Part shown: positions 9,835 through 62,440 of the stretch, in pieces
Position numbering within the stretch: the first letter of the stretch is position 1
How the letters are laid out: each line of letters begins with the position of its first letter
Assembly (NCBI GenBank): GCA_963835065.1
Contig: CAWIEK010000050.1
Span: 128,001 to 192,000, forward strand
Direction of reading: 5' to 3'
Length of the DNA: 64,000 bases
Source: an uncultured Chthonomonadaceae bacterium
Lineage (GTDB): Bacteria; Armatimonadota; Chthonomonadetes; Chthonomonadales; Chthonomonadaceae
Position numbers and translations under genes: made by a program
The notes under the pieces: generated by a model
What the model was told of the DNA's origin: nothing
Databases searched by the model: none
The model's input: the letters and a program-made list of their open reading frames with translations, nothing else

Positions 9835-12801
<2,967 letters not shown>

Positions 12802-45730: not shown

Positions 45731-47322
45731 ATGCAAAGGAATGTACTCATGTTTACGAACAGGCTGTCTTCCCGCTCTTTATTCCGGCAGCTTCGGTCTT
45801 CACAAATCCGGCTTGCCTTCCTACTTTCTATCGGGCTGTCCATCGGAATAACCGTTGGGGGCGCGTTCAATTGTGGCGTGGCGCGGGCGCAGGAAACGCC
45901 CCGGAACGCGCAAAAACAAACTGCGCCTGCTTCACTTGGCCCCAATCTGCTGCCGAACGGCGATTTTGCGCGGGAAAGCGCTGCGTGGACATCGGAACTG
46001 ATGAACGGCAAGGCCAACGCCACGCTTGCCTGGCCTGCCGATGCGCCGCTGCCTGCGGGCGTGACGGGCAAAGTGGCTCGTTTTGAGGTAGAGGCCATAG
46101 ACAAAGAGCGCTGGCATGTGCAGTTTTACCAGAACGGCCTGAACTTGAACAACAACGAAACGTACACGGTTACGTTTTGGGCGCGTTCCGGTGAAAATCG
46201 CCTGCTTTCCATTTCCGCCAATGCGGATGAAGGGGATTACCACGCGCTGGGTCTGGACAATCGCCTTGCCATCAGCCCGCAGTGGCGCAAATACAGCCTG
46301 GCGTTCACCGCGCTTCACGCCCGCAAAAATCATGCGCGTTTGTGCTTCATACTCGGTGACGCCCTGGGGCGCGTGGAACTGGCGGACGTTCGGCTGCAGC
46401 AGGGCGCGGCAGACGCGCCACTCGGGTTCCAATCTGCTGCGCAACGCCGGGTTTTGAGCAGGGCATGGCTTCCTGGATGCCCCTGCTCGTGGAAGCGCCC
46501 GCGCAGGCCACTTTACAATTAACGGACGCGCCCCCCGCCAATGTGGGCGGCAAAGTGGCGCACCTTGCCGTGTCTCAGCCCGGAACTCAACTCTGGCATG
46601 CGTACTTCGGCCAGAGCGGTTTGAAACTGGAAGAAGGGCAGGCGTATACCCTGAGTTTCTGGGCCAAATCGGGTCAAAGCCGCTCCGTGACCGTTTATTC
46701 CGACATTGCGCAGGACGATTACCACCAGACCGGCCTGCGTCAAACAGTGGAATTGACGCCCAACTGGAACAGGTTTACGTTCGTGTTTACGCCTACCAAC
46801 ACGGGCAGCAGCGCGGCACGAATTATCTTTGCCGCCGGGGATGCGGTGGGCGATGTTGATGTGGCAGGCGTTACCTTGCAGCGTGGCGCTGCGCCGGCTG
46901 TCAAAAAGCCCGCGCCTTCCTCGGACACAGCCGCGGTTCGCGCCATTCTGAACGGCAAATCCACTGCGGACAAAACGCCGGGACGGGGCGATACGCGGGC
47001 GCACCGCTCCCATCCTCTCCTGGGAACGTGGCAGAGTTTTCATAAGGAGGAAGGGCTGACGGGCAAGGAGTACCAGCGCTACCGCTTTGTGTTTGAGGCG
47101 AATGGCAACGGCTCGCTGCAAGTGGCGACCATGTCCGCCGACCCTGCCGACCCGCCCAAATCGCAGCAAACTGAAGCCTTCAAATGGGACTTGATTGAGG
47201 GCGGCCCCCACATTTCCATCGGCGCGAACGTGTATACGTGGACGATTGACAAGGATGGCGCAAAGCAAAAATTAACGTTGAAGAACTACGAAGGTAAAAC
47301 CTATATCCTGTTCCGCCAGTAA
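45731..47322 (+). CDS. Secreted protein with tandem CBM4/9-like carbohydrate-binding domains, frameshift near 46425
   Basis: NLLPNGDF, WHVQFYQ and YTVTFWARS; second copy NLLRNAGF / WHAYFGQ / YTLSFWAKS in another frame. Confidence 0.75.
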
Positions 47323-47518
47323 AAACCGGTATGTAAAATGCTTGCTGTGAAACAGATTACCAGGCGATCAAATCTGCAAATTGCATGGGCGCGCGGCCTG
47401 CTTGCTTGTTGAGCCGAATACAGACGTTATGCAGCGCGGCTTTGGCACACAAGCGGGCATATAGCCACGAGTTGAAAACCCCTGGCGAAAATGTGTACGG
47501 CAGTGAAAGAGGTTCTTA

Positions 47519-47690
47519 GAGCCTATCCCGATAGGGCTTGTCCTTGCGTCTGAAAGACGCTTGCTTTGTCCGGACAGGGGGTGGCGCCCGTGTGGTTGCG
47601 ACCCCCTAGCAACCACACGGGCAGCTGGAATTGCGTCTGCAGACGACAGCCAAGAGTCGTTTTCAAAACCCGGCCAATTGGGATAGGCTC
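47519..47690. mobile_element. MITE, copy 2 (IS5-like ends)
   Basis: Same TIR GAGCCTATCCC/GGGATAGGCTC and same subterminal sequence as 5948..6040; TTA on both sides; longer interior. Confidence 0.75.
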
Positions 47691-48667
47691 TTAGTCGCGG
47701 GGCGGCGGGGGCGCGTCGGCGGGCGTGAGCGGGATGGGATGCAGCAGCCCGCGCTGAAAACTCCGCGATTCGGTAATGCGCAGGCGTTCGGGCAAAATAT
47801 AGGGGAACCGCAGCCCCTGCGAGGCTTCCGCCGGGTACGCGGAACCGGCGTACTGCACCGTGTACTTGCGGGCGGCGAAGCGTCCGAGCCGAACGCGATT
47901 TTGACAACGGGGGTTTTGGTTTCCGCAATGCCGTGCAGTACCGACCACTCAACCGGCCAGTTCAGCATCTCTTCCAGCCAGCCGATAACGTCCGCGTACC
48001 CCATGCTGCGTCCAAGCGCGAGATAAGCGTTTGCCTGCGCGCGGGTCGCGTCGCAATCGAAGCGGCAGGGCAGATGCGGCACAGCCCGCGCGCCCAATGA
48101 CCGCAGCAGGACATTACCCTGAAACGGGCCGGTGACGCGCCAGGTATCGGGCGCGATTGCTTCCTTTTGCGCCGTGTTTAGCGTCATCGGCCACGTCGGG
48201 TCCACAAACCGGTCACGATACCAGATTTGCTCGAAAAACGCATGGCAGCAGACCGGGCAGCCCACCATTCGCGCCACTTCCGCCCGATCCTCGCGCTGCC
48301 AGGCCGCCGCCAAATCCTCCACGTTTTCCAGCGCCCCCACCGCAATCCGGTAACGGAGCGGAGCCTCGCCCGTAGCGCGCGCCGCGTAGTGCGTTCCCCC
48401 ATCCAGCCCTTCCAGAATTCGCAGGTGCAGACGATGCCGCGTCACCTGTTCGCGCAGGCGTTCCAGTTCCCCCGCATAAACCACCACCCGCATACACGGA
48501 CGCAATCCTTCCGCAACCGACAGCAGTTCCCACTCCTGCCAGGCGGCGATAAGCCGATCCACGCGGGGCTGCCACACCTCCCGCGCCCGGTCGCTGACCC
48601 ACGAAAAGCGGGTAAAGTCCGGCAGGCGAAACTCAAGACGCTCCATAGTTCCCGTAAACGACTCCAT
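47691..48667 (-). CDS. Cys-motif accessory protein of the radical SAM cluster (DUF483-like motifs); apparent frameshift near 47875
   Basis: AAGGGGAG RBS; VGCPVCCHAFF and PHLPCRFDC; plausible C-terminus (KYTVQYAG...GLRFPY...) lies in the frame of ORF 47691..47948. Confidence 0.75.
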
Positions 48668-48764
48668 TTCCGCTCCCCTTCCGCCCATCAAAAGCACCGG
48701 CTACAAACCAACCCCCGAACACCGAACACCAAACACAAACACCTGAATACCCGAACACCCGCCT

Positions 48765-49940
48765 CTATCCGGCCTTGACCGCAACCGCCCGCATCGCTTC
48801 AAGCGTTTCTTCCATCGTGGGGTTACTGCCCCGGCCCCACGCTTCCAGCATCGCCCGTTCCAGGAATATCCGGTTGGGCTGCGCGGAAATCGGGAAACTG
48901 CCCCGATCCAGCAGGCGCTCTTCGACATGGCGAAACAGTTTTTTCCAGATGTCGCAATGTTCCGTGCGGTTGCGCCAATCGCCGTCAATGGCCGTGCCGG
49001 GACATTGCCCCTTGCACACGAGGAAAAAACGGCAGTCCTTGCACCCGCCATGCGCTTGGGGCGTGTGGTACAGCGCAATATAGCGTTCGTAGCCGGGGCG
49101 GGAGGCTTTGGTGAAATCAATGCCGTCCTTGTTGGTGCGCCCGCAATTGCTGCGCTGCCCGTTTCCCTCCACGCCCTGCACAGCCGCCGTCGTGTAAGCG
49201 TCGCAGGCCATCCACACGCACGTCGCCTGCCGATCCTTTCCCGCCAGCAGGCGCTCCATGTCGGAAAAAAGGTCGAAGCGCAAATGGGAAAGCGATGGCT
49301 CCATTTCGGCAAAATGCAGCAGCGCCCCGATGTTTTCCGGGACGTTCAGCGCGTACTTGCGGCGAATAATCTCGTTTTCCACTTCCAGAATGTGCAGACG
49401 GGCGCTCACGATGCCCATTTTGTCACATTCGCGGAACCACGCGGCCATGCGCGGCAGTTTGTCTTCCGTCGCATTGTTGCGGTGCAGCGTCACGATCAGG
49501 CTTGGCGGCGTTCCCTCTTCGCACAAACGCCGAATGGCCTGATGCGTTCTCGCGCTCGCTTCCCGCGTTTTCGCCAGATTACCGGCCCAGCGTACATCGT
49601 TGAGTTCGTCCGGGCCGTCTACCGAAATCCCGACGTGGACGTTGTACTTGTGGAACAGGCGAATATGGTTTTCCGTCACCAGGGTTCCGTTCGTCTGCAC
49701 GGAATTGGACCCGAACTTTTCCAGCCCCCACGCCCACAGTTCTTCCAGGTCATCATCGGGAATCAGCAGCGGCTCTCCGCCGAACAGGGTAAACGCGCCG
49801 CCGCTTTTCAAAACCGCCTGCTTCATCGCCTCCATATCATACGATTTGGTCAGATTGCCCGCGTCCCGCTGCGGATTCTGGTAGCAATACTGACACCCGA
49901 TATTACAGTTGACGCCCAACGGCCTCAGTTCAACGCCCAT
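48765..49940 (-). CDS. Radical SAM/SPASM-domain maturase
   Basis: GGAGA RBS; CNIGCQYCY, FGGEPLL, QTNG, ISVDG; C-terminal CVWMAC...NC...CKDCRFFLVCKGQC...HC. Confidence 0.93.
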   Translation of the reverse strand: MGVELRPLGVNCNIGCQYCYQNPQRDAGNLTKSYDMEAMKQAVLKSGGAFTLFGGEPLLIPDDDLEELWAWGLEKFGSNSVQTNGTLVTENHIRLFHKYNVHVGISVDGPDELNDVRWAGNLAKTREASARTHQAIRRLCEEGTPPSLIVTLHRNNATEDKLPRMAAWFRECDKMGIVSARLHILEVENEIIRRKYALNVPENIGALLHFAEMEPSLSHLRFDLFSDMERLLAGKDRQATCVWMACDAYTTAAVQGVEGNGQRSNCGRTNKDGIDFTKASRPGYERYIALYHTPQAHGGCKDCRFFLVCKGQCPGTAIDGDWRNRTEHCDIWKKLFRHVEERLLDRGSFPISAQPNRIFLERAMLEAWGRGSNPTMEETLEAMRAVAVKAG

Positions 49941-50053
49941 GATTGTCTCCAATCGCTTCAATGATGAGTGATGAGTGATGAGTGATGAATGAGGATGCCG
50001 TTCATCATTCATCACTCAGCATCCATCACTATCAACTATCAACTATTAACTGC

Positions 50054-50602
50054 TTAGATCGCCTTCGCCGGCACATCCACATGCGGCGTCGAGGTGTCTC
50101 CATGCGGGATGGCCGTGCCGTCCGTGTGCGGAATGGTTTTGGTGTCTATGTGGGGCAGCACCTGCGTGTCCGCGTGGGGAATGAGCGTAGAATCCACATG
50201 CGGTACCACCGGCGTGTCCACATGGGGGGTGATGGTGGTATCTACATGTGGAATGATCGTGGCGTCCGTGTGCGGCGTACCAACGTCGAAGTGCGGCTTG
50301 CCGGTATCCCAATGCGGGCGGCTATCCACATGCGCCCTGCCAAAGAAACTGGTGTCGTCGTGAGAGCCTGTGGAATCGGAATGGCCGCCGCCGCTGTCCG
50401 CGTGACTGGAAGCCGTATCCGTGTGTTTGGCAGCGGTGTCGGCGTGTTGGGCGGCAGCATCTACATGCGCCTTCTGCGGCGTATCCCCATGCTTGGAAGG
50501 CGTATCTACATGCTTTGGCGGCGTATCCACGTGCGGCGCAGCCGGGACATCGGCATGCTGCGAGGGCGTATCTATATGCTTGCCCGCCACATCTATATGC
50601 GG
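50054..50602 (-). repeat. Coding repeat: 24 His-x-Asp motifs, mostly 7-8 aa apart
   Basis: PHIDVAGKHIDTPSQHADVPAAPHVD...IPHGDTSTPHVDVPAKAI, counted by hand. Confidence 0.95.
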
Positions 50603-53600
50603 CGTCAGCAGGCCGCTGAACAGGGAACTGGCATTGTCCTTGATCTGCTTTTCCACGCGATCTCCCAGCGCTTTGATGTCGCGGGGAGACACGGACAGGG
50701 TGAAGGCGGGCATAGTCACTTTATGGCCCGACCAGACGAACTGGCCGCTGACGGAAGCGCTGAAGCCGGACGAGCCGAGATGCGTGTCGAGCTGCAGGCC
50801 GACGGAAGTATTCAGGGAAATGTTGGGAATGAGGGTGGTATGCGTCACCGGGTCCTGAATCGCGCCGGTATCCAAATTCAGCGGCAGGGAGATAAGCACC
50901 ATCCCGGAAAAGTCGTAGGCATTGCCCGTACGCTTTATGCTGAACACGGCGTGAACGCCCAGCCATTGCCCTTCGATGGTCGCGCTGTTGTTGGTAATCG
51001 TCACCATGGACTGCAGGATGTTGAAGTCCTGCAGGGCAACGCTTACCGCCGCCTGCAAATACAAGTTCCCCCTGTTGTCGAGCGTCATCAGGCCGTCCGC
51101 TTTCACTTTCAGCGGTGAGGAGTCCGGGAACAGATCGAGATGCCCCTGCATACGGAAGTGGGTGTCGTCCATTTCCAGGCTGGCCGTAAAGACGGTATGG
51201 TCTCCCACGCGCAGCAGGCTCGTTCCGCTGACCGCGAAAGCGGGGGAATTGTGGCTGATAACCACCTGCCCGCGCAAATCCGCCGAAAACAGACTGCCGA
51301 TGCTGCCGGCAACATGCAGCACGGTTCCGAAGCCGCCCGACGCGCCCGCCACCCCGAAGCGGCAGTCGAAGTCCAGCACGTTCGCCAGTTTCCAGCCGCC
51401 GCGCAGGAATAATACCATGCCCTCATCGTTGGGCGTGGGCGAGGGCGGCAGAACCTGAATAGTCGCGTTCAGGTCGTTGAAAGCGGCGGGAACCCGGTTC
51501 TTCGCCACCAGGTCGCGGAACTCTTTGGGCGTGGTGATAAGCCAGTCGGCGTAAATGCCTGACATAAAGCCGAACGCCAGCGTCTCCTGCCCGACGCGCT
51601 TTTCCAATGGCAGGCACTGTATCAGTTCGTTCAGGCTGAGAGTTTTCATCGCGTTCAGCAGATGCGCGAGGAGGCTGTACGCGGTATAGGGGGGCTGCAA
51701 GCCGGTCTGTGTGCCGAGCAGCTTGCCGCTGAGGTATTTGGGCAGTTGCAGGTAGTTCGGCCCGACCGTCAGAGAGAACGGAACCGCCGCCCCGAACGAA
51801 GCGTTGGGGTCGAGCAGATACGTTCGATCCGTGAAGAACTTTTCCACACTGGTGAAGAGCGCCAGCAGCTGCTTGAAGTCGGGAACCTGCGGTTTCGGGA
51901 ACTCCCAGTCCGTAACCACGCTCAAGCCTTCCAATCCGAGATATTCGTAGCGCAGATGCTCACAGAAGAGCGGAATGGGAATCGGGATCACGGTCTCGTA
52001 GAGTACAAGCACGAACAGGTTGTGCAGCGTGAGCGTGTTCACGAGCGCGTTGCTGTTAGGCAGAATCGGCAGTTTGTCCAGGGGCAGCGCGATGGCGGCG
52101 GCCATAGTGATTATGTCGAAGAAATCCAAAATGGCGTCTATCTTGACGGAAAGCGCTGCGCCGCCGAACAGTTCGCCAAGCGTGAGACTGTACAATTCGA
52201 TGCCCATGAGCTGCGGCAGCGGGCCGATAAAACACGATGTCAGGATTTTGATCGGCTTGTCGCCTTCCACCGCGATTTTGCCGCTGACGCGCCCGTCGTC
52301 CGTGACGGTAATATCGAACGTGAAGCCCTCCGGTATCTCAAAATCGAGGTAGGATTTGAAGCGGGTGGGCAGATGGTCCAGCCGGGACGCAATGGCGTCA
52401 AGCGCGGAAGTGAACTCTTTCGGCAGCGTAATGCCGGCTTTTTGCAGCAGTTTCAGCAGCGCGGCTGTGTTCAAATTGCCCTTGTCGTCGAACGCCTTTA
52501 TTTCTGCAAGGGGAATGCCGTTGGGCAGCGCGGAACCCAGCGCGTTCAGGTGGCAGGCATTCAGCAGCGACTTGATGGGCGTGAGCGGAATCTGGAGCGG
52601 AACGCTCGGATCAGCCTGCTCGAAGCCGCCCTGCGCGTTGAACTGCTTGCCGTCGTAACTGAAGACGGGAACCTCGAACTTGAACTTGCCGAAATCGCCG
52701 AAGTCCACGTAGCACCAGGTATTCGCGCCTTCAGTTTTGAACTGAAGGGCGAGGAAGGGGGAGGAAACGGCGCGAATGGAAAGCCCGTTTTTCACATCAG
52801 CCTCGACGCGCAGGCGCGTCACGGTGCTGTCATCACCTTTGCGGTACGTGTTGAAGACATTCACGGACGGCGTACCGTCGGATTTCGTGCCAAAGAGCGT
52901 GTTTGTCTGATCCGGGATGCCCACCCCGGCGTCCATGGAGAAACTGATGTCGCTGCCCAATTGCAGGGTAAAGTTGGCGGCTTCGACATTGCCCGTTCCC
53001 CATTTCAGATGCAGGCTGCCGACATTAGTATCGGGATACTTGATTTCCACGGGGCTGACCAGATGATCTATCGTCAGCGCCGCGCCCGCCGCGTCCGCTT
53101 TGAAATCCGCTTTGCACGGCGAGTTGGTGGCCGGGAAAAGCGACTGCAAGCCTTTGGGCATTTCCGTAAACCACAGGTCTACCTCCGCGTCAAAGGCCCA
53201 TTTGGTTTTGCCCCCGCTGTCGCGCGTCCCGGTCACGCCGACGGATTCCCATCCAAGATGAACGGAAGAGGGGGTGCTGGGAATGGGAATGGAAACGTCG
53301 GCATTAGTGGCTTTGAAAATGAGTCCTACAGTTTTGCCCTGATCGTACAACTGCACCGAACCTGTAACGGCAACGTTGGGATCGAAGTGGAGGCCGCCCG
53401 CGATGGTAACGTCCCAGGTATACGGGCTGGCGGAATCCAGGGCATGAGCGGTATCCGGCGTTTTGGTTTTGGCTTTAAGGGCTTTTTGAATGGTAATCGC
53501 CACGCTGTCCGCCGTCATGCCGCCGATGCCCGGCAGCGTGACAAGATCGCCCTTGCCGGTCTGCCCGGCGTCCAGCATAAACGTTCGCGCGTCCGCAGTG

Positions 53601-54901
53601 GTCGTCACGCTGGCGGCGAGGGTGACATTATGATCGAAAACGGTGGCGGCTATGGAACCGGACACGCTCCAATCGGATTTGCCGTCGTACTGAAAGCTGA
53701 GGTTCGTGCCCGTAAATAGCAGGCCGTCCACAACCGTGACGGTTTCCGTATCCTGCGCCGTGAGCAGCGCGTGTATCGCCCCGGAAACCTGTGCCGCGCC
53801 GCTGCCCGTGCTTGCGTCCCTGGCTATATGTATGGTAGTCGTGTCAATGCCCTGATTAGCGACGCCGAACGGCAGCGTCCAGCGCGTGGCGCATGTCGCG
53901 TCGAACGTGAAGACGCCGGTATCGGGAACGGCGGTCAGTTTCACGCCGGAAAGCGTGACATCGGGAACTTCGGGCGGGAGCGTAACGCCCTTCGGCAGCA
54001 GGTCACGGACAACCGCATTGAGATTCAGGGGCGTTTGCGCCGCCAAATCCGCTTCCAGCATCCAGTTGGCGTCTCCCGCGGCCTTGCTTGCGGATACCGT
54101 CAGGTCGCTGTCGAACAGCAGAAGCTGGCCCTGAAGACTGCCTTCTACGGTTCTGGTTGCGGCCTTGCCGGGCGTGTTGATGGTCAGATCGAGCGACACG
54201 CCGCTGACGGCGAATTTATCCGGGAACACCTGCCACACTTGATCTTTGCCCGACACCTGCGTTGCCAGATGAATGGAAGCGATGGAGGCGGCTTTGGTGT
54301 CCACGCTGAGGGAGATAGTGGCAAGCGACACGTCGCCCAGGCTTGCAAGCCCGGAAGGAAAGAACGAAAGGTCGGCGGAAGCAAGGCTTGCCAGTTCGGT
54401 CAGGCCAAGCGCGGGCAGGGTGTCGGCGGCAAGCGTCAGCGTCCAGAGGGCAGCCGTCGCCGTTACCTGAAATTCCACCGGCACGGCTTTTTGTTTCACC
54501 GTCAGTGTGGCATCCACCAGTCCCGTGACCGTGTTGACGTCCGCCAGGCTGACGCTCAGTTTGAAGCGCGTCACGGCAAGCCAGGACAAGTCGGGGATAT
54601 GAAGGGGCGCGGCATCCTGATAGGTCACGGTCAGGTCGCACGACTTTACGGCCCCCGCTTCCTTGAAATCAATCTCCACACCGGCCTGTGGAATGTTAAA
54701 AAGGGTGACATTGCCGGTAACGGCGAGACTGCCATCCGATGTGGTGGCAAGGTTCGCGTTTTGCACCACGATTTTATCGCCGCCGGGGATGTTGGAAAGC
54801 AGGGCGGGCAGAAGCCCGCCGCTTTGGGCAATGCCGGCCAGGGAAAGCAGGCCGTTTTGAATGTCTGTCTGAATCTCTTGCTGCAGCTGCGCGAGCGACA
54901 T
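50054..54901 (-). CDS. 1615-aa beta-strand-rich protein with C-terminal His-x-Asp repeat tail (candidate radical SAM substrate)
   Basis: Uninterrupted ORF with GGAG RBS; alternating hydrophobic/polar strands; 24 HxD motifs in the last ~182 aa; no signal peptide. Confidence 0.9.
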   Translation of the reverse strand: MSLAQLQQEIQTDIQNGLLSLAGIAQSGGLLPALLSNIPGGDKIVVQNANLATTSDGSLAVTGNVTLFNIPQAGVEIDFKEAGAVKSCDLTVTYQDAAPLHIPDLSWLAVTRFKLSVSLADVNTVTGLVDATLTVKQKAVPVEFQVTATAALWTLTLAADTLPALGLTELASLASADLSFFPSGLASLGDVSLATISLSVDTKAASIASIHLATQVSGKDQVWQVFPDKFAVSGVSLDLTINTPGKAATRTVEGSLQGQLLLFDSDLTVSASKAAGDANWMLEADLAAQTPLNLNAVVRDLLPKGVTLPPEVPDVTLSGVKLTAVPDTGVFTFDATCATRWTLPFGVANQGIDTTTIHIARDASTGSGAAQVSGAIHALLTAQDTETVTVVDGLLFTGTNLSFQYDGKSDWSVSGSIAATVFDHNVTLAASVTTTADARTFMLDAGQTGKGDLVTLPGIGGMTADSVAITIQKALKAKTKTPDTAHALDSASPYTWDVTIAGGLHFDPNVAVTGSVQLYDQGKTVGLIFKATNADVSIPIPSTPSSVHLGWESVGVTGTRDSGGKTKWAFDAEVDLWFTEMPKGLQSLFPATNSPCKADFKADAAGAALTIDHLVSPVEIKYPDTNVGSLHLKWGTGNVEAANFTLQLGSDISFSMDAGVGIPDQTNTLFGTKSDGTPSVNVFNTYRKGDDSTVTRLRVEADVKNGLSIRAVSSPFLALQFKTEGANTWCYVDFGDFGKFKFEVPVFSYDGKQFNAQGGFEQADPSVPLQIPLTPIKSLLNACHLNALGSALPNGIPLAEIKAFDDKGNLNTAALLKLLQKAGITLPKEFTSALDAIASRLDHLPTRFKSYLDFEIPEGFTFDITVTDDGRVSGKIAVEGDKPIKILTSCFIGPLPQLMGIELYSLTLGELFGGAALSVKIDAILDFFDIITMAAAIALPLDKLPILPNSNALVNTLTLHNLFVLVLYETVIPIPIPLFCEHLRYEYLGLEGLSVVTDWEFPKPQVPDFKQLLALFTSVEKFFTDRTYLLDPNASFGAAVPFSLTVGPNYLQLPKYLSGKLLGTQTGLQPPYTAYSLLAHLLNAMKTLSLNELIQCLPLEKRVGQETLAFGFMSGIYADWLITTPKEFRDLVAKNRVPAAFNDLNATIQVLPPSPTPNDEGMVLFLRGGWKLANVLDFDCRFGVAGASGGFGTVLHVAGSIGSLFSADLRGQVVISHNSPAFAVSGTSLLRVGDHTVFTASLEMDDTHFRMQGHLDLFPDSSPLKVKADGLMTLDNRGNLYLQAAVSVALQDFNILQSMVTITNNSATIEGQWLGVHAVFSIKRTGNAYDFSGMVLISLPLNLDTGAIQDPVTHTTLIPNISLNTSVGLQLDTHLGSSGFSASVSGQFVWSGHKVTMPAFTLSVSPRDIKALGDRVEKQIKDNASSLFSGLLTPHIDVAGKHIDTPSQHADVPAAPHVDTPPKHVDTPSKHGDTPQKAHVDAAAQHADTAAKHTDTASSHADSGGGHSDSTGSHDDTSFFGRAHVDSRPHWDTGKPHFDVGTPHTDATIIPHVDTTITPHVDTPVVPHVDSTLIPHADTQVLPHIDTKTIPHTDGTAIPHGDTSTPHVDVPAKAI

Positions 54902-55258
54902 AGCGGAACTCCATTCTTAGTGAGCGTACCGACCGTGTAAAGAGAACAGTGTGAAGAAAAACTGTTGGCAGAAACAATTTGCAAACAAGTTGCAGAGAAC
55001 GACTGCCTGCATCGTGGCGAGGAGTGGCATGTATCGGAAGCGCGGCATCGGGACGGCTTCCCCTAACCTTGAAAGCCATTATAACAAAACAATTACCTGC
55101 TGTCAACAAATTTTTTAAGAATTTTCTATCCATACGCCCGTTTGTTTTTTAGGCTGTTTGACAGCACTCTGCTTGTGCCTTCTGTTTCTCCTGCGTAACA
55201 GACAAAGCAAGTTTTCATCAAGTAAAAAGATATTTATCCTTCCCAGTGACGCAGAAGC

Positions 55259-55282
55259 GGGCGTGATGAATCACGCCCCTAC
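55259..55282. repeat. REP-like palindrome
   Basis: GGGCGTGA-TGAA-TCACGCCC-CTAC. Confidence 0.55.
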
Positions 55283-55388
55283 ACACCATGTTTGAACGGT
55301 ATTGCTCTTAAACTTTTCTTAACATCGGGCTGGTATGATACCGTCGGCATTACACGGCTTCTCTGCCTATTCAAGAAAGGAATTTTTT

Positions 55389-56953
55389 ATGTCTACCGAG
55401 ACTTCACTTCCCAAACTTTCGCGCCGCCAACTGCTGCAAGCGGCAGGCGGCGTCACCTTTCTCGCGCTTGTGCCCACGCGCAACGGCTACGCCGCCCGTT
55501 TCGACCGCGACGGTCAATCGGCAACCGAAAATCAAAAATCGAAAATCCCTATGCCTCTGTTCACCGCCCTGCCGTATATTCAGCCCGGCACGAGCAGCAG
55601 TAAGTTGGTGGAGGGGCAGGAATCGCTTGTCATTGCGTGGCAGACCAACCATGTTCCCGCCACATTTACGCTTGATTACGGCGCGTCCGGCCTGAACCGG
55701 CAAGCCACGATTACAAAGGCCGAACGTATGAGCGGCGACCATGAGGACGAAAGCCATCATCAGAATTATGTCGCCACGCTGACCGGCCTGTCGCTGAACA
55801 AACGCTATCAGTACCGCGTCCGCATGAACGGCGAAACTATAATGGAAGGTTATTTTACGACCCGCAAGCCGCGCGGCGTGAAAAGCCGGTTTGTCGCGTT
55901 CGGCGATAATTCTTATGGCGACATCAGCGACCGCGCGATTGCATACCAGGCGTACCGCGCCCGCCCCGACTTTGTGATGAATACGGGCGACAATGTGTAC
56001 GAAGACGGCCTGGACAACGAGTATGCCCGCTACTTCTTCCCCGTGTACAACGCCGAGCAGACGGGACAGCGCACGGGCGCTCCGCTCCTGCGCTCCATTC
56101 CGTACTATTCCGTGATTGCCAACCACGATGTTCACGCCAAAGGGCCGCAGGGGCAGCCGGTCGCCAACTTCACCCTCCACAACGACGCGCTGGCCTATTT
56201 CACCAACTTCCACTTTCCCCTGAACGGCCCCAATCCCGCCCGGAAAACACCGGCGTATGGCGATGCCGAGGCCATTGAGCATTTCGCCAAATGCGCGGGC
56301 GGACGGTTCCCCAACATGGTGAACTACTCCTACGATTATGCCGACGCGCATTTTCTGTGCCTGGACAGCAACATTTATGTAGACCCGACGGATACGGGCT
56401 TGCAGGAGTGGATTGCAGTCCGACCTTGCCGGCACGGACGCGGCGTGGAAGTTCGTCGTGTACCACCATCCGGCCTTCAACGCGGGCTACGACCATTACG
56501 CCGAGCAGCACATGCGCGTCCTGTCGCCCCTGTTCGAGAAGCACGGCGTAGACATTTTGCTGCACGGGCACGAGCATACCTACCAGCGGACGCGCCCGTT
56601 CCGCTTCGCGCCCGGTGATATGTCTGCCGCCAAAGCCGTAAACAGCAAGAACCGGTTGGTTCCCGGCAAGTTCACCATTGACACGCGCTTTGACGGCAAA
56701 ACCGTGACCAAGCCGGACGGCATTTTGTACATCACGACAGGCGCGGGCGGCAAGCACCTGTACGACCCGCAAAACAACAACAACCCTAAAAGCTGGCTGC
56801 ATCCCGAAGACAACAACGCGGATTACGTTGTTCCGCTTCGTGTCCGACCGCCATTCCCTGACCGTCTTCGACATGGACGCCCACTCCCTGCGCCTGACGC
56901 AAATTGACGAATGGGGCGCGGAAATTGACCACATTCATATCACCAAAGCGTAA
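55389..56953 (+). CDS. Tat-exported purple acid phosphatase-like metallophosphoesterase, two apparent frameshifts (~56417, ~56833)
   Basis: SRRQLL leader; FGD, GDNVY and ANHD in the first ORF; YHHP, GHEHTYQR and YITTGAGG in the second. Confidence 0.85.
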
Positions 56954-58930: not shown

Positions 58931-60433
58931 ATGAGTTTTCAGATCAACACCAACGTCACGGCGCTCAACGCGCTCAACAACCTCAACAAAGTTTCCAACA
59001 GCGTCGCCGGCAGCATTGAAAAGCTGTCTTCCGGCTTGCGCATCAACCGCGCCGCCGATGATCCGTCGGGCTTGATCATCTCCGAATCCCTGCGCGCCCA
59101 GATTGACGGCTTGAACCAGGCCGTCAGCAACAGCCAGGACGCCACCAACCTGATCAAAACTTCGGAAGGCGCATTGACCGAAGTGAACAGCCTGCTGCGC
59201 AACGTGCGCCAGCTTGCCGTACATGCCGCCAACACCGGCGTCAACGACCAGGTGGCGGTGCAGGCCGACCAGACGCAGATCACATCGGCCATTGCCAGCA
59301 TCGAGCGCATCGCCGAGCAGACCCAGTTCGGAACCAAGCACCTGCTCGATGGCTCGTCCGGTATTGCGGCAAACGTCGTGGACACCAAGAACGTTGCGGG
59401 CATCAGCATCGGCGGCGTATTTAACAACCTGACCACGCAGAGCGGCACGGTCAATGTCGTTGTCAACTCTGTTGCGACCCGCGCTCAGGTATCCGGCCTG
59501 GCAACTTATGCCAGCGTCACGGCCAGCATCAGCACGGTGGCCGGCCTCAAAACCGGCAGTGGCGGCACAGTTGTTCTCAACGGGCAGTCCATCGCCGTCA
59601 GCGGTTCGGACACGGTGCAGACCTTGATCAACAAGATCAACAACTTGGCCGGCACAACGGGCGTATCGGCGGACTTCACCACTGCCAACGGTTCGGGTTC
59701 CATCGTGCTGACGCAGCAGAACTACGGCTCCAACTTCCAGATCAACGAAAGCGAGTCCTCTCCCCTGCTGACGGGAACCGGAGCGCCCACGCTGGTCAAG
59801 GGAAATAACGCTACCGTCACCGTCATCACGTCCGCTCTGGTCAACGGCGCGGTCACAAGCGTCGTTGCTACCTTTACCGGAGGCCGTTCCGCAAGCGACA
59901 GCGGACTGCGCGTAACCGATACGACGGGCAACAGCATTCTGCTGACGGAAGGCGCGTTGAGCAACTACAACGCCACCACGCCGGTTCAGTTGACGGTTGG
60001 CACGGTGACAGCGGGCAATCTCCAGTTCCAGATCGGCAGCAACGCCGGCCAGACGGTTACGGCCAGTCTGGGCAACGTTCGCACCACCAACCTGGGCAAC
60101 ACCAGTGTCGCCGGCTCGAACCTGTCCCTGGTTGACGTGACGACGACAAGCGGAGCCACCAACGCGATTACCATTACGGATGAAGCCATCGGGCAGGTGA
60201 CGCAACTGCGCGCCAACCTGGGCGCCTTCCAGAAGAACACGCTGGACTCGACCATCAACTATCTGAATGTCGGCGTGGAGAACCTGTCCGCGTCGGAAAG
60301 CCAGATACGCGACACCAATGTGGCCTCGGAAGTCGTAAAACTGACCAAGAACCAGATCATTCAGCAGGCCGCGCAGTCGGTTTTGTCGCAAGCCAACTCC
60401 GCGCCCCAAGCCGTGCTGTCGCTTCTGAGGTAG
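58931..60433 (+). CDS. fliC: Flagellin
   Basis: INTNV, KLSSGLRINRAADD, FQIGSN, RANLGAFQ, SQIRDTNVASE and LSQAN motifs; GGAGG RBS. Confidence 0.97.
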   Translation: MSFQINTNVTALNALNNLNKVSNSVAGSIEKLSSGLRINRAADDPSGLIISESLRAQIDGLNQAVSNSQDATNLIKTSEGALTEVNSLLRNVRQLAVHAANTGVNDQVAVQADQTQITSAIASIERIAEQTQFGTKHLLDGSSGIAANVVDTKNVAGISIGGVFNNLTTQSGTVNVVVNSVATRAQVSGLATYASVTASISTVAGLKTGSGGTVVLNGQSIAVSGSDTVQTLINKINNLAGTTGVSADFTTANGSGSIVLTQQNYGSNFQINESESSPLLTGTGAPTLVKGNNATVTVITSALVNGAVTSVVATFTGGRSASDSGLRVTDTTGNSILLTEGALSNYNATTPVQLTVGTVTAGNLQFQIGSNAGQTVTASLGNVRTTNLGNTSVAGSNLSLVDVTTTSGATNAITITDEAIGQVTQLRANLGAFQKNTLDSTINYLNVGVENLSASESQIRDTNVASEVVKLTKNQIIQQAAQSVLSQANSAPQAVLSLLR

Positions 60434-60750: not shown

Positions 60751-61587
60751 TTGATTGATTATGAGCAAATGCTGCGAGACCCCGTATCGCGGCGGGCGTT
60801 TCTGGCGCGCATGAGCGCGGCGGGATTGGGCGCGTTATCCCTGCCCCTGCTGACAGGCTGCAACGGCAACACCAGCAGCAACAATACCAATAGCGCGGTG
60901 GGCAATTCTCTCGGATTTCCGGGTATTCCCGGACGCAACGCCAATGAGGTTGTGCTGAACTACGCGCTGACGCTGGAAATCACCGAAGCCGACCTGTATC
61001 GCCAGGCGCTCAACCGCGCGGCAGGGCTGGCGTTGGGTACGCAGTTGGATACCAATCTGCCCCGGCCCGGCACGACCGGCAGTTACAAGATGGTACTGAC
61101 CGCCGGTGGCCTGGACAGCAATACGGCGGCAGCAGGCTTTTTATACCTGGTGCAGTTCGCGTATGTGGAGGCCACGCACCGCGATTTGCTGTTTGCGATG
61201 CTGACCGGCTTAAAAGCGCCCCTGACGCAGGCCAGTGTCAAAGGCTATACCTTCCCCAATTCGGAACCGGGCGTAGACCTGAAAACTATCCTGACCAATC
61301 TGTATTCCATTGAAGAAACGGGCGTACGCGCCTATCTCGGAGCCGTGCCGACTTTAACGGACAATACCGTCGCCCAGACCGCAACCGCCATCTACTCGAC
61401 GGAAGCCCGGCACTCCGCTGCCCTGGCCTATCTCCTGGGCAAAGACCCCGGTCCGGCGACGGGCGTGGCTTCCACTTCCGACATCAGCGTCACCGGCCAG
61501 GCGTACCCGCACGTCAACACCTTTGAGTATGCCTCCACTCCCACCGAAGTGCTGACGGCGGTTTCCACGGCTTATTATGTCAAGTGA
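60751..61587 (+). CDS. Ferritin-like domain protein, Tat lipoprotein
   Basis: SRRAFL plus lipobox LTGC; LNYALTLE, EATH, EETGVRAYLG and EARH motifs. Confidence 0.85.
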   Translation: MIDYEQMLRDPVSRRAFLARMSAAGLGALSLPLLTGCNGNTSSNNTNSAVGNSLGFPGIPGRNANEVVLNYALTLEITEADLYRQALNRAAGLALGTQLDTNLPRPGTTGSYKMVLTAGGLDSNTAAAGFLYLVQFAYVEATHRDLLFAMLTGLKAPLTQASVKGYTFPNSEPGVDLKTILTNLYSIEETGVRAYLGAVPTLTDNTVAQTATAIYSTEARHSAALAYLLGKDPGPATGVASTSDISVTGQAYPHVNTFEYASTPTEVLTAVSTAYYVK

Positions 61588-61678
61588 GACGCGGAAGTTG
61601 ACGGATGCTTGCAGGTGAACAGTTTTGGATCATGCCGATATTTCCGGCTTGAAAACTTTTGGAAGGATGAGATTCACG

Positions 61679-62440
61679 ATGAGCGATACACACAATGCCG
61701 CGCCGACGCCGAACGCCACGCCTGCGCGCCCTGTCGCCGCGCTTGCGGGCATGGCGGCGGTAGCGGTCGGCACAATGCTGGCGGCAAACAGGGCCAATGC
61801 CCTGACTCTGACCTTTAACGACAACATTCCCGGAACCGGCGACATCAAGGTGCTGAACTACGCGCTGGCGCTGGAAGATTTCGAATCGGCTTTGTATCAG
61901 GCGGCGATTGCCAAACTGCCCTCATTGGGGGCAAGCGCGGGCAATGCCATTTTTGATTACGCGACCAAGTTCGCCGTTGTGGAAGCCGACCACGCGGCGT
62001 TTTTGCGGGGCGCGATTACGGCGGCGGGCGGCACGCCCATCAGCAAGTTCACCTATAATTTCAGCAGCATCACCGGGGCTGCGGATGCCCGCGCCGTTCT
62101 GGAACTGCTGCTGCAAGTGGAAGCAACGGGCGTACGCGCCTACATCGGGGCCGTGCCTTTGTTTTCCTCCAAAAGCGCGTACCTGCAAACGGCAGCCGCC
62201 ATTCAGGGAACCGAAGCCCGCCATACCAGCATCCTGACGATTGTGCGTAATACCCTGTACGCGACCACAACCAACGTTTCCTCCCTGACGCAGGACGGCA
62301 GCGCGATTGTCAATCTGAACTACGACACCATCGGCTACAGCGCGGCCAATCCCAACGAAGGCTACAAGGGCATTGACGTAGCCCTGTCTCCCAACGCCGT
62401 TCTAACCGCCATCGGCCCATTCTTCGTCGCGCCCGCATAA
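61679..62440 (+). CDS. Ferritin-like domain protein
   Basis: LNYALALE, EADH, EATGVRAYIG and EARH motifs; paralog of the upstream gene. Confidence 0.85.
   Translation: MSDTHNAAPTPNATPARPVAALAGMAAVAVGTMLAANRANALTLTFNDNIPGTGDIKVLNYALALEDFESALYQAAIAKLPSLGASAGNAIFDYATKFAVVEADHAAFLRGAITAAGGTPISKFTYNFSSITGAADARAVLELLLQVEATGVRAYIGAVPLFSSKSAYLQTAAAIQGTEARHTSILTIVRNTLYATTTNVSSLTQDGSAIVNLNYDTIGYSAANPNEGYKGIDVALSPNAVLTAIGPFFVAPA

Follow-up and report, generated by a model that had tools for sequence, protein, structure and literature searches.

A three-gene unit of a His-x-Asp array protein, a radical SAM/SPASM enzyme and a DUF483-like partner: a candidate system for the modification of full-length proteins

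The three-gene unit and its products

This report concerns a three-gene unit in the genome of an uncultured Chthonomonadaceae bacterium (assembly GCA_963835065.1). The DNA analysed, referred to below as the window, is the 64,000-nt stretch at 128,001-192,000 of contig CAWIEK010000050.1, and positions follow the numbering of the window. Three open reading frames (ORFs) occupy 47691-54901 on the minus strand in one orientation. The first encodes a giant protein, the second a radical S-adenosylmethionine (SAM) enzyme with a SPASM domain, and the third a partner protein with cysteine motifs (Table 1). An earlier annotation of the same DNA, made without database searches and called here the sequence-only reading, had described a giant protein with a tail of His-x-Asp (HxD) triplets, a radical SAM/SPASM enzyme and a Cys-motif gene, co-oriented and separated by gaps of about 100 bp. 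All three genes are found where it had placed them, and the gaps measure ~113 bp between the giant and enzyme genes and ~97 bp between the enzyme and partner genes. No terminator-like sites were found in either gap on the coding strand.

Table 1. Positions of the genes and features of the three-gene unit in the window
Feature	Coordinates	Strand	Remarks
Giant protein gene, 1615 aa	50054..54901	-	Beta-rich body of ~1420 aa without known family; the tail is the HxD array
HxD array, 24 His-x-Asp triplets, predicted substrate	50075..50599	-	Residues 1435-1609 of the giant protein
Radical SAM/SPASM enzyme, 391 aa	48765..49940	-	ATG at 49940 supported by homology; the ORF extends to GTG at 50015
Partner gene, DUF483-like, frameshifted	47691..48667	-	Family-invariant motifs CC, HLPCxxxC and EWSxLHGIAE; ~324 aa in intact relatives
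2-bp insertion (frameshift) in the partner gene	47876..47878	-	Relative to close relatives
Promoter-like site	55078..55106	-	TTGACA, 17 nt, TG-TATAAT; 12/12 match to the sigma-70 consensus with extended TG; ~180 bp 5' of the giant gene ATG

The giant protein contains 26 HxD triplets, of which 24 form the array, at spacings of 6-10 residues that are mostly 7-8. Every His in residues 1426-1615 (24/24) belongs to an HxD triplet. In 10,000 shuffles the tail never reached 24 HxD, the maximum being 9, and the 1380-residue body of the protein has 2 HxD where 1.6 are expected. With HxD-dense defined as at least 5 HxD per 80 residues, a single one of the 151,555 open frames in the 8.0-Mb genome of the window organism is dense; it is the tail of the giant protein, and the runners-up have 4. 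The HxD array is not a uniform repeat, since its centre, 'FFG-x-H-x-D ... H-W/F-D' at residues ~1517-1540 (50330-50390), is conserved and recurs in the tails of proteins from Chloroflexota, Cyanobacteriota, Myxococcota and Acidobacteriota. The giant protein had zero matches in Pfam, NCBIfam and PHROGs, and an Atlas search with it found hypothetical clusters only. A fold search with a model of residues 1-1200 (mean predicted local distance difference test score, pLDDT, 63) gave only meaningless matches, with template modelling (TM) scores of ~0.06. Five relatives of the giant body were found; a single one ends in HxD triplets (20 units), and the tails of the other four are different.

The enzyme carries the CxxxCxxC motif at C12, C16 and C19, followed by CX2CX5CX3C. 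The 11 residues before the first motif leave no room for a leader-binding domain, and the only Pfam matches are Radical_SAM (expectation value, E, 8e-16) and Fer4_12. Eight C-terminal Cys (C241, C246, C266, C300, C303, C309, C313 and C329) are conserved in an alignment of 44 sequences and are consistent with two auxiliary clusters. The NCBIfam scores of the enzyme, in bits against the cut-off of each family, are 78 against 450 for DynA, 75 against 349 for the anaerobic sulfatase maturase TIGR03942, 71 against 425 for AmcB, 60 against 445 for YhhB, 52 against 310 for GrrM and 42 against 450 for XyeB. The 44 clade members come from many phyla and are 49-94% identical to the window enzyme. The best NCBIfam matches of all 44 are AmcB, the sulfatase maturase and DynA at E ~1e-23 to 1e-25, far below the cut-offs, and neither the window enzyme nor any clade member reaches the cut-off of a curated cyclophane family. 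The clade comprises at least 2322 clusters at E<=1e-80, which source databases name just 'radical SAM protein' or 'uncharacterized'. Judged from these comparisons, the enzyme is a member of a large unnamed clade that is equidistant from cyclophane synthases and the sulfatase maturase. A role as sulfatase maturase was considered and rejected on the score for that family and on the neighbourhood, where none of the 16 neighbouring ORFs encodes a sulfatase. The outcome that the sequence-only reading had named as adverse, clustering with sulfatase maturases beside sulfatases, did not occur.

In the enzyme tree (70 rows), the window enzyme pairs with that of locus L001, a Chthonomonadaceae metagenome-assembled genome (MAG), to which it is 94% identical. 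The supported set around the window has a Shimodaira-Hasegawa-like approximate likelihood ratio (SH-aLRT) of 97. It consists of 15 loci of the giant type and 2 of the small type, with Armatimonadota, Chloroflexota and Cyanobacteriota among their phyla. The 'giant' label changes 3 times on this tree as against 14.0 times in shuffles, and none of 500 shuffles was as low. This result reflects clustering and not co-evolution, because kin share labels.

The partner gene starts at ATG 48667, preceded by AAGGGGAG, and its product contains both CPVCC and HLPCRFDC. The CxxCC and HxPCxxxC motifs of the sequence-only reading are therefore present. The gene is not one continuous frame, as the 2-bp insertion shifts the last ~60 codons, and the end of the ORF has the look of out-of-frame sequence. 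Two 324-residue homologues, 90% and 86% identical, run on in another frame, and the homologous frame ends at 47691. In addition, tblastn breaks the window partner into two frames at one point, and a DNA alignment to L001 places two surplus bases in the window near 47876-47878. Among public DNA runs, which represent related strains (share at most 0.27), one contig, ~96.5% identical, is without the two extra bases. The system may be impaired in the window organism, or the assembly may be in error at the site.

The partner family has as its invariants CC and H..C...C together with several E, H and D residues, and the invariant CC...H..C...C suggests a metal site. The window partner has no match among the curated Pfam and NCBIfam models. 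The family has at least 224 relatives, most of them of ~500 residues owing to a C-terminal fusion with a class I SAM methyltransferase. Pfam DUF483 (PF04467) weakly matches 22 of 27 aligned relatives (best E 1.8e-5), and it occurs in 13-20% of the members of the partner's Atlas neighbours; the closest intact homologue of the window partner has no match to PF04467 at E<=1. These matches point weakly to a distant relationship between the partner and DUF483. A partner profile had 0 matches to sequences of the PDB. The model of the 90%-identical homologue (pLDDT 87.8) gave no Foldseek match at E<=0.001, and its best VIA match (Z 6.4, residues 37-153) is a protein of unknown function.

Conservation of the unit in cellular genomes

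With the partner alignment as anchor, 80 cellular loci were retrieved from 185,579 species genomes. In 76 of them the gene immediately upstream of the partner encodes a close homologue of the enzyme. In 71 of the linked loci the similarity to the window enzyme is strong (phmmer E ~1e-95 to 1e-264), and in 5 there are weaker fragments of a split or cut gene. The remaining four loci are cut, with a contig end no more than 141 bases from the partner. Enzyme and partner form one fused ORF in 9 loci, and a methyltransferase domain, absent from the window, is fused or adjacent to the partner in 47.

An HxD-dense ORF adjoins the enzyme-partner pair in 58 of the 80 cellular loci. Short versions, with 1-3 HxD or aromatic-x-D triplets, are found in five further loci, and H/Y-D-D tails in another two. 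In 26 viral contigs, described below, the array adjoins the pair in 23 and the enzyme adjoins the partner in 24. The expectation of the sequence-only reading that enzyme homologues would neighbour both HxD-repeat ORFs and the Cys-motif gene was thus borne out on both counts. Chance adjacency of the three genes was rejected when these frequencies were set against the single dense frame in the genome of the window organism. The three genes are the only ones shared by the 15 giant-type loci. No peptidase or exporter adjoins the unit among the window neighbours or in these 15 loci, in agreement with what had been noted from the sequence.

The three genes recur together in many bacterial phyla, one archaeon and phages. 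Their distribution is patchy. In a sample of 201 genomes from the phylum of the window organism the partner is present in 3, the window's own included, and in none of 10 genomes of the same family. The two other partner-bearing genomes belong to the same order and have a small twin-arginine (Tat)-type form with 6 HxD, in one case as two tandem copies. This patchiness fits horizontal spread of the system, which we infer. A frame-blind DNA pattern of three close HxD matched 188 of the 201 genomes and gave non-zero counts in controls, which makes it too noisy to show whether arrays are limited to partner-bearing genomes. In one same-order relative, locus L123 (G181:C169) has two tandem precursors of ~90 residues with Tat leaders and 6 HxD at 10828-11631, after the enzyme and partner, a small form like that of peptides made on ribosomes and modified after translation (RiPPs).

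The unit in phages and viral contigs

A tblastn search with the partner against 50,697 phage records found three Thermus phages, Cumys, phiMa and phiLo (E 5e-44 to 2e-32). The gene order in Cumys is baseplate, tail collar fibre, Cumys_14, Cumys_13, radical SAM enzyme and DUF483, and Cumys_13, upstream of the phage radical SAM gene, has 54 HxD. In phiLo, the proteins phiLo_135, phiLo_136 and phiLo_137, encoded after baseplate wedge genes, have 55, 101 and 72 HxD. The partner and the Thermus phage HxD proteins had zero matches in PHROGs. Among 26 IMG/VR contigs with the partner, 23 carry one to five separate HxD-dense ORFs, and the array ORFs of viral contig L105 match tail-fibre and collagen-like PHROGs (E 3e-46).

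The radical SAM enzymes of the Thermus phages (L081:2731-3981 and L082:2424-3872) have 4 and 9 HxD at their own C-termini, and three enzymes of viral contigs have 5-7. These triplets may mark self-modification or a pseudo-substrate. The window enzyme carries none.

Carriers of the array

Two architectures account for the cellular loci with arrays. In 14 loci the array terminates a protein of at least 850 residues upstream of the enzyme, and 10 of these are, like the window, without the methyltransferase. The remaining architecture is a repeat protein of ~90-500 residues downstream of the partner-methyltransferase. The motif F[ST]RRx[LI][LI]xAG[WML]xxP, which we take to be a twin-arginine export signal, precedes the array in 26 loci, and 8 of these, mostly actinobacterial, have an additional lipobox-like AACGG.

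The bodies of the array carriers are mutually unrelated. A giant carrier from a myxobacterium (L014:4563-8807) has a Tectonin/Tachylectin domain, and another from Leptolyngbya (L010:3121-8682) has a ConA-like Laminin_G_3 domain; these lectin-type domains hint at extracellular carbohydrate-binding roles. A further carrier has a phage-tail domain. In an Acidimicrobiaceae MAG (L026:11464-14691), the carrier is a flavin adenine dinucleotide (FAD)-linked oxidase (FAD_binding_4) that directly follows the partner-methyltransferase and has HxD arrays at both ends, with 36 HxD in all. Because the carriers are unrelated and relatives of the giant body have other tails, the array behaves as a portable module. 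The sequence-only reading had suggested a substrate that forms an appendage of a large protein and is not released as a peptide, and this idea fits, because the arrays are borne by many unrelated full-length proteins, phage tail fibres included.

Proposed modification and alternative explanations

The HxD array is very probably the substrate of the enzyme pair, and its motif logic gives an indication of the chemistry. The 58 cellular arrays contain 1710 His, of which 1549 are part of HxD; the middle residue is variable (T, G, A, S, V) and the spacing peaks at 5, 8 and 3. The two fibres of viral contig L105 follow a broader rule. All of their His (25/25 and 29/29) are in H-x-D or H-x-N, with Asn in place of Asp in about half of the units, and nearly all of their Phe (13/13 and 15/16) are in F-x-N. 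The unit is thus aromatic-x-Asp/Asn, which matches the Omega1-X2-X3 motif of triceptides, whose defining bond runs from an aromatic ring to the C-beta of the third residue. Phe at the His position fits a link from an aromatic residue to a C-beta. Precedents come from the available parts of three reports. On HTK and HAA, triceptide synthases bond His-C2 to the third residue's C-beta, and they tolerate H-to-F variants (PMC11499958), MicB forms a His5-Ser7 cyclophane (PMC12912966), and an Aro-Xaa-Asn motif is cited (PMC9062424).

For the unit as a whole, the reading that we judge probable is that the enzyme and partner modify the 24 HxD triplets, most likely by joining the His ring to the Asp C-beta. 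The specific His-to-Asp C-beta link, argued from motif logic and precedent, has about an even chance of being correct. According to this scheme, the enzyme and the DUF483-like partner would act on the tail of the 1615-residue product of the gene immediately upstream. The triplet itself, not a leader, would be recognized, because the arrays have no leader in common, their carriers are unrelated and the enzyme offers no room for a domain that binds one. With its three Fe-S clusters, the enzyme would take the C-beta hydrogen of Asp and couple the C-beta to the imidazole. Each triplet would lose 2 Da, up to 48 Da for the array of the window, and the product would be a covalently stiffened, fibre-like tail that is retained on the protein. 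The wider proposal is that one radical SAM enzyme and its DUF483 partner write dozens of three-residue rings into full-length proteins in a leader-independent manner. It is evenly poised between right and wrong, and the same balance applies to its extension over phage tail fibres, Tat-exported lipoproteins and lectin-bearing giants, in which the window would represent the chromosomal giant-protein form.

Several points weigh against this proposal. The F-x-N variant is known from viral arrays, and none of the 4 Phe in the window tail fits it. In the available parts of the triceptide reports, the crosslinked X3 residues are K, A, S and N-type motifs, and Asp is not among them. The best NCBIfam match of the enzyme falls far short of its cut-off (78 against 450 bits), and a sulfatase maturase, which oxidizes its substrate and makes no crosslink, is equally close. 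Fifteen of the 80 cellular loci are without an array; in 10 of these the sequence flanking the pair is shorter than 2.5 kb on one side or both, but in the other five (L030, L052, L074, L077 and L078) it exceeds 7 kb on each side. The partner gene of the window is frameshifted. No export signal is recognizable on the giant protein.

An unlikely alternative, though the one that survives best, keeps the HxD array as the substrate and changes the chemistry. It includes a C-N link through the imidazole nitrogen, oxidation of the Asp beta-carbon in the manner of a sulfatase maturase, epimerization, or a two-step product that involves the partner and the methyltransferase. AmcB, DynA and the anaerobic sulfatase maturase are equally close to the enzyme, and DynA reportedly makes a bond from His N to C-beta. 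The conserved, enzyme-like partner and the methyltransferase in 47 of 80 loci also suggest more than one step. On the other hand, the interchange of H with F and of D with N in viral arrays fits the attack of an aromatic ring on a carbonyl-adjacent C-beta, which is the triceptide pattern, and Phe offers no nitrogen for a C-N link.

A second alternative, which we consider improbable, is that the array mainly binds metal, as in ion-coordinating trimeric fibres, and that the enzyme pair serves cofactor or metal handling or acts at another site. His and Asp are typical ligands of metals, arrays are found in tail fibres and behind collagen-like (trimeric) segments, and the His-x-His motifs of phage T4 fibres bind iron. 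However, Phe cannot bind metal, and its presence at the His position in the L105 fibres, where Asn also often replaces Asp, argues against a purely metal-binding role. A further point against it is how tightly the enzyme pair is linked to arrays whose carriers are unrelated. Metal binding and stapling are compatible and not mutually exclusive.

It is highly improbable that the radical SAM-DUF483 module modifies DNA with the repeat protein as a bystander: homologues in some cyanobacterial genomes lie near deazapurine DNA-modification genes, according to the available part of a preprint (bioRxiv 10.1101/2024.08.14.607894), but the window neighbourhood has no DNA-modification gene, the sole gene travelling with the pair is that of the HxD-array protein, and the nearest families of the enzyme act on peptides and proteins.

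Relation to known systems and significance

The preferred reading, modification of the HxD triplets with a proposed His-to-Asp link, places the unit closest to the triceptide synthases (HaaB, HtkB, MicB; AmcB, YhhB, GrrM/OscB, XyeB, FxsB). The likeness lies in the Cys set of the radical SAM/SPASM enzyme together with an adjacent substrate of aromatic-x-X3 repeats, and AmcB is the best-matched family across the enzyme clade. His as the aromatic residue and the interchange of H and F have precedent in the available parts of the reports (PMC11499958, PMC12912966). The differences are considerable. The window enzyme is below every curated family cut-off. Here the predicted substrates are full-length proteins that carry up to ~100 units and have neither a common leader nor a peptidase alongside, and the one in the window is the tail of a 1615-residue protein instead of a leader-guided precursor released by proteolysis. 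A DUF483-like partner is obligatory, and Asp as X3 is without precedent in the portions of the triceptide reports that were available.

The same unit has been described in part. The 'rSAM module' of the Thermus phages Cumys and phiMa was reported in a preprint that, in its available part, notes DUF483 fusions, suggests DNA modification and calls the third gene unknown (bioRxiv 10.1101/2024.08.14.607894). Genes, order and orientation are the same as in the window, and the partner is 35-36% identical (tblastn). In contrast to the preprint, the third gene is identified here as an HxD-array protein, and the window version is chromosomal, outside a phage context and on a 1615-residue protein.

Two other relatives are informative with respect to the enzyme. 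The anaerobic sulfatase maturase (anSME) acts without a leader on a short motif within a whole protein. Its structure 4k36 is the closest solved structure to the enzyme (E 2e-13), and the CxxxCxxC motif is at the extreme N-terminus in both; however, the score of 75 bits against a cut-off of 349, the absence of a sulfatase neighbour and the different substrate motif set the window enzyme apart. DynA is the top single NCBIfam match, yet its 78 bits fall well below the cut-off of 450. Dynobactin is a small released peptide.

The His-Xaa-Ser (Hxs) system also combines a His-x-X repeat protein with radical SAM enzymes, as the available part of one report supports (PMC9062424). It differs in having two radical SAM enzymes where the window has one, and here a DUF483-like partner is present and the third residue is Asp/Asn, not Ser. 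The link to Hxs drawn in the sequence-only reading is unsupported, because HxsB and HxsC do not appear in the top 25 of 60 NCBIfam matches, and all of these matches fall short of the cut-off.

A literature search, with most subscription journals outside its reach, did not find an HxD array tied to a radical SAM enzyme. If the stapling proposal is true, the ring-forming radical chemistry of small peptide natural products also builds proteins, in tandem arrays of up to ~100 units. RiPP-type cyclophane chemistry would then have its first case on structural proteins and virions, and the post-translational modifications of structural proteins, virus particles included, would gain a new member. The proposal would also provide a function for DUF483 and a leader-free enzyme for stapling designed repeat proteins.

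Other features of the window

The promoter-like site upstream of the giant gene is the sole 12/12 match within 47300-55400. Promoter-like sites are not enriched in this region, with 3 in total compared to 3.5 in shuffles, and we infer the promoter function of the site from its sequence. An Rfam scan of 47000-55400 gave zero matches. The flanking genes are unrelated to the unit and are on the plus strand; they encode PEP-CTERM, lactonase, TPR, CBM_4_9, phosphatase, esterase, flagellin and ferritin-like proteins.

A short dispersed repeat lies at 47515-47695, just 3' of the partner stop, and has conserved ends of ~50 and ~35 bp with a hairpin-rich middle. The ends are present in ~14-33 copies in the window's own genome, and 47660-47693 is matched by many contigs of public runs. 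A tandem CBM_4_9 pair is found at 45731-47322, upstream of the 3' side of the operon, and a tandem Ferritin_2 pair further on (60751-62440). A longer antisense ORF overlaps the gene for flagellin (58931-60433).

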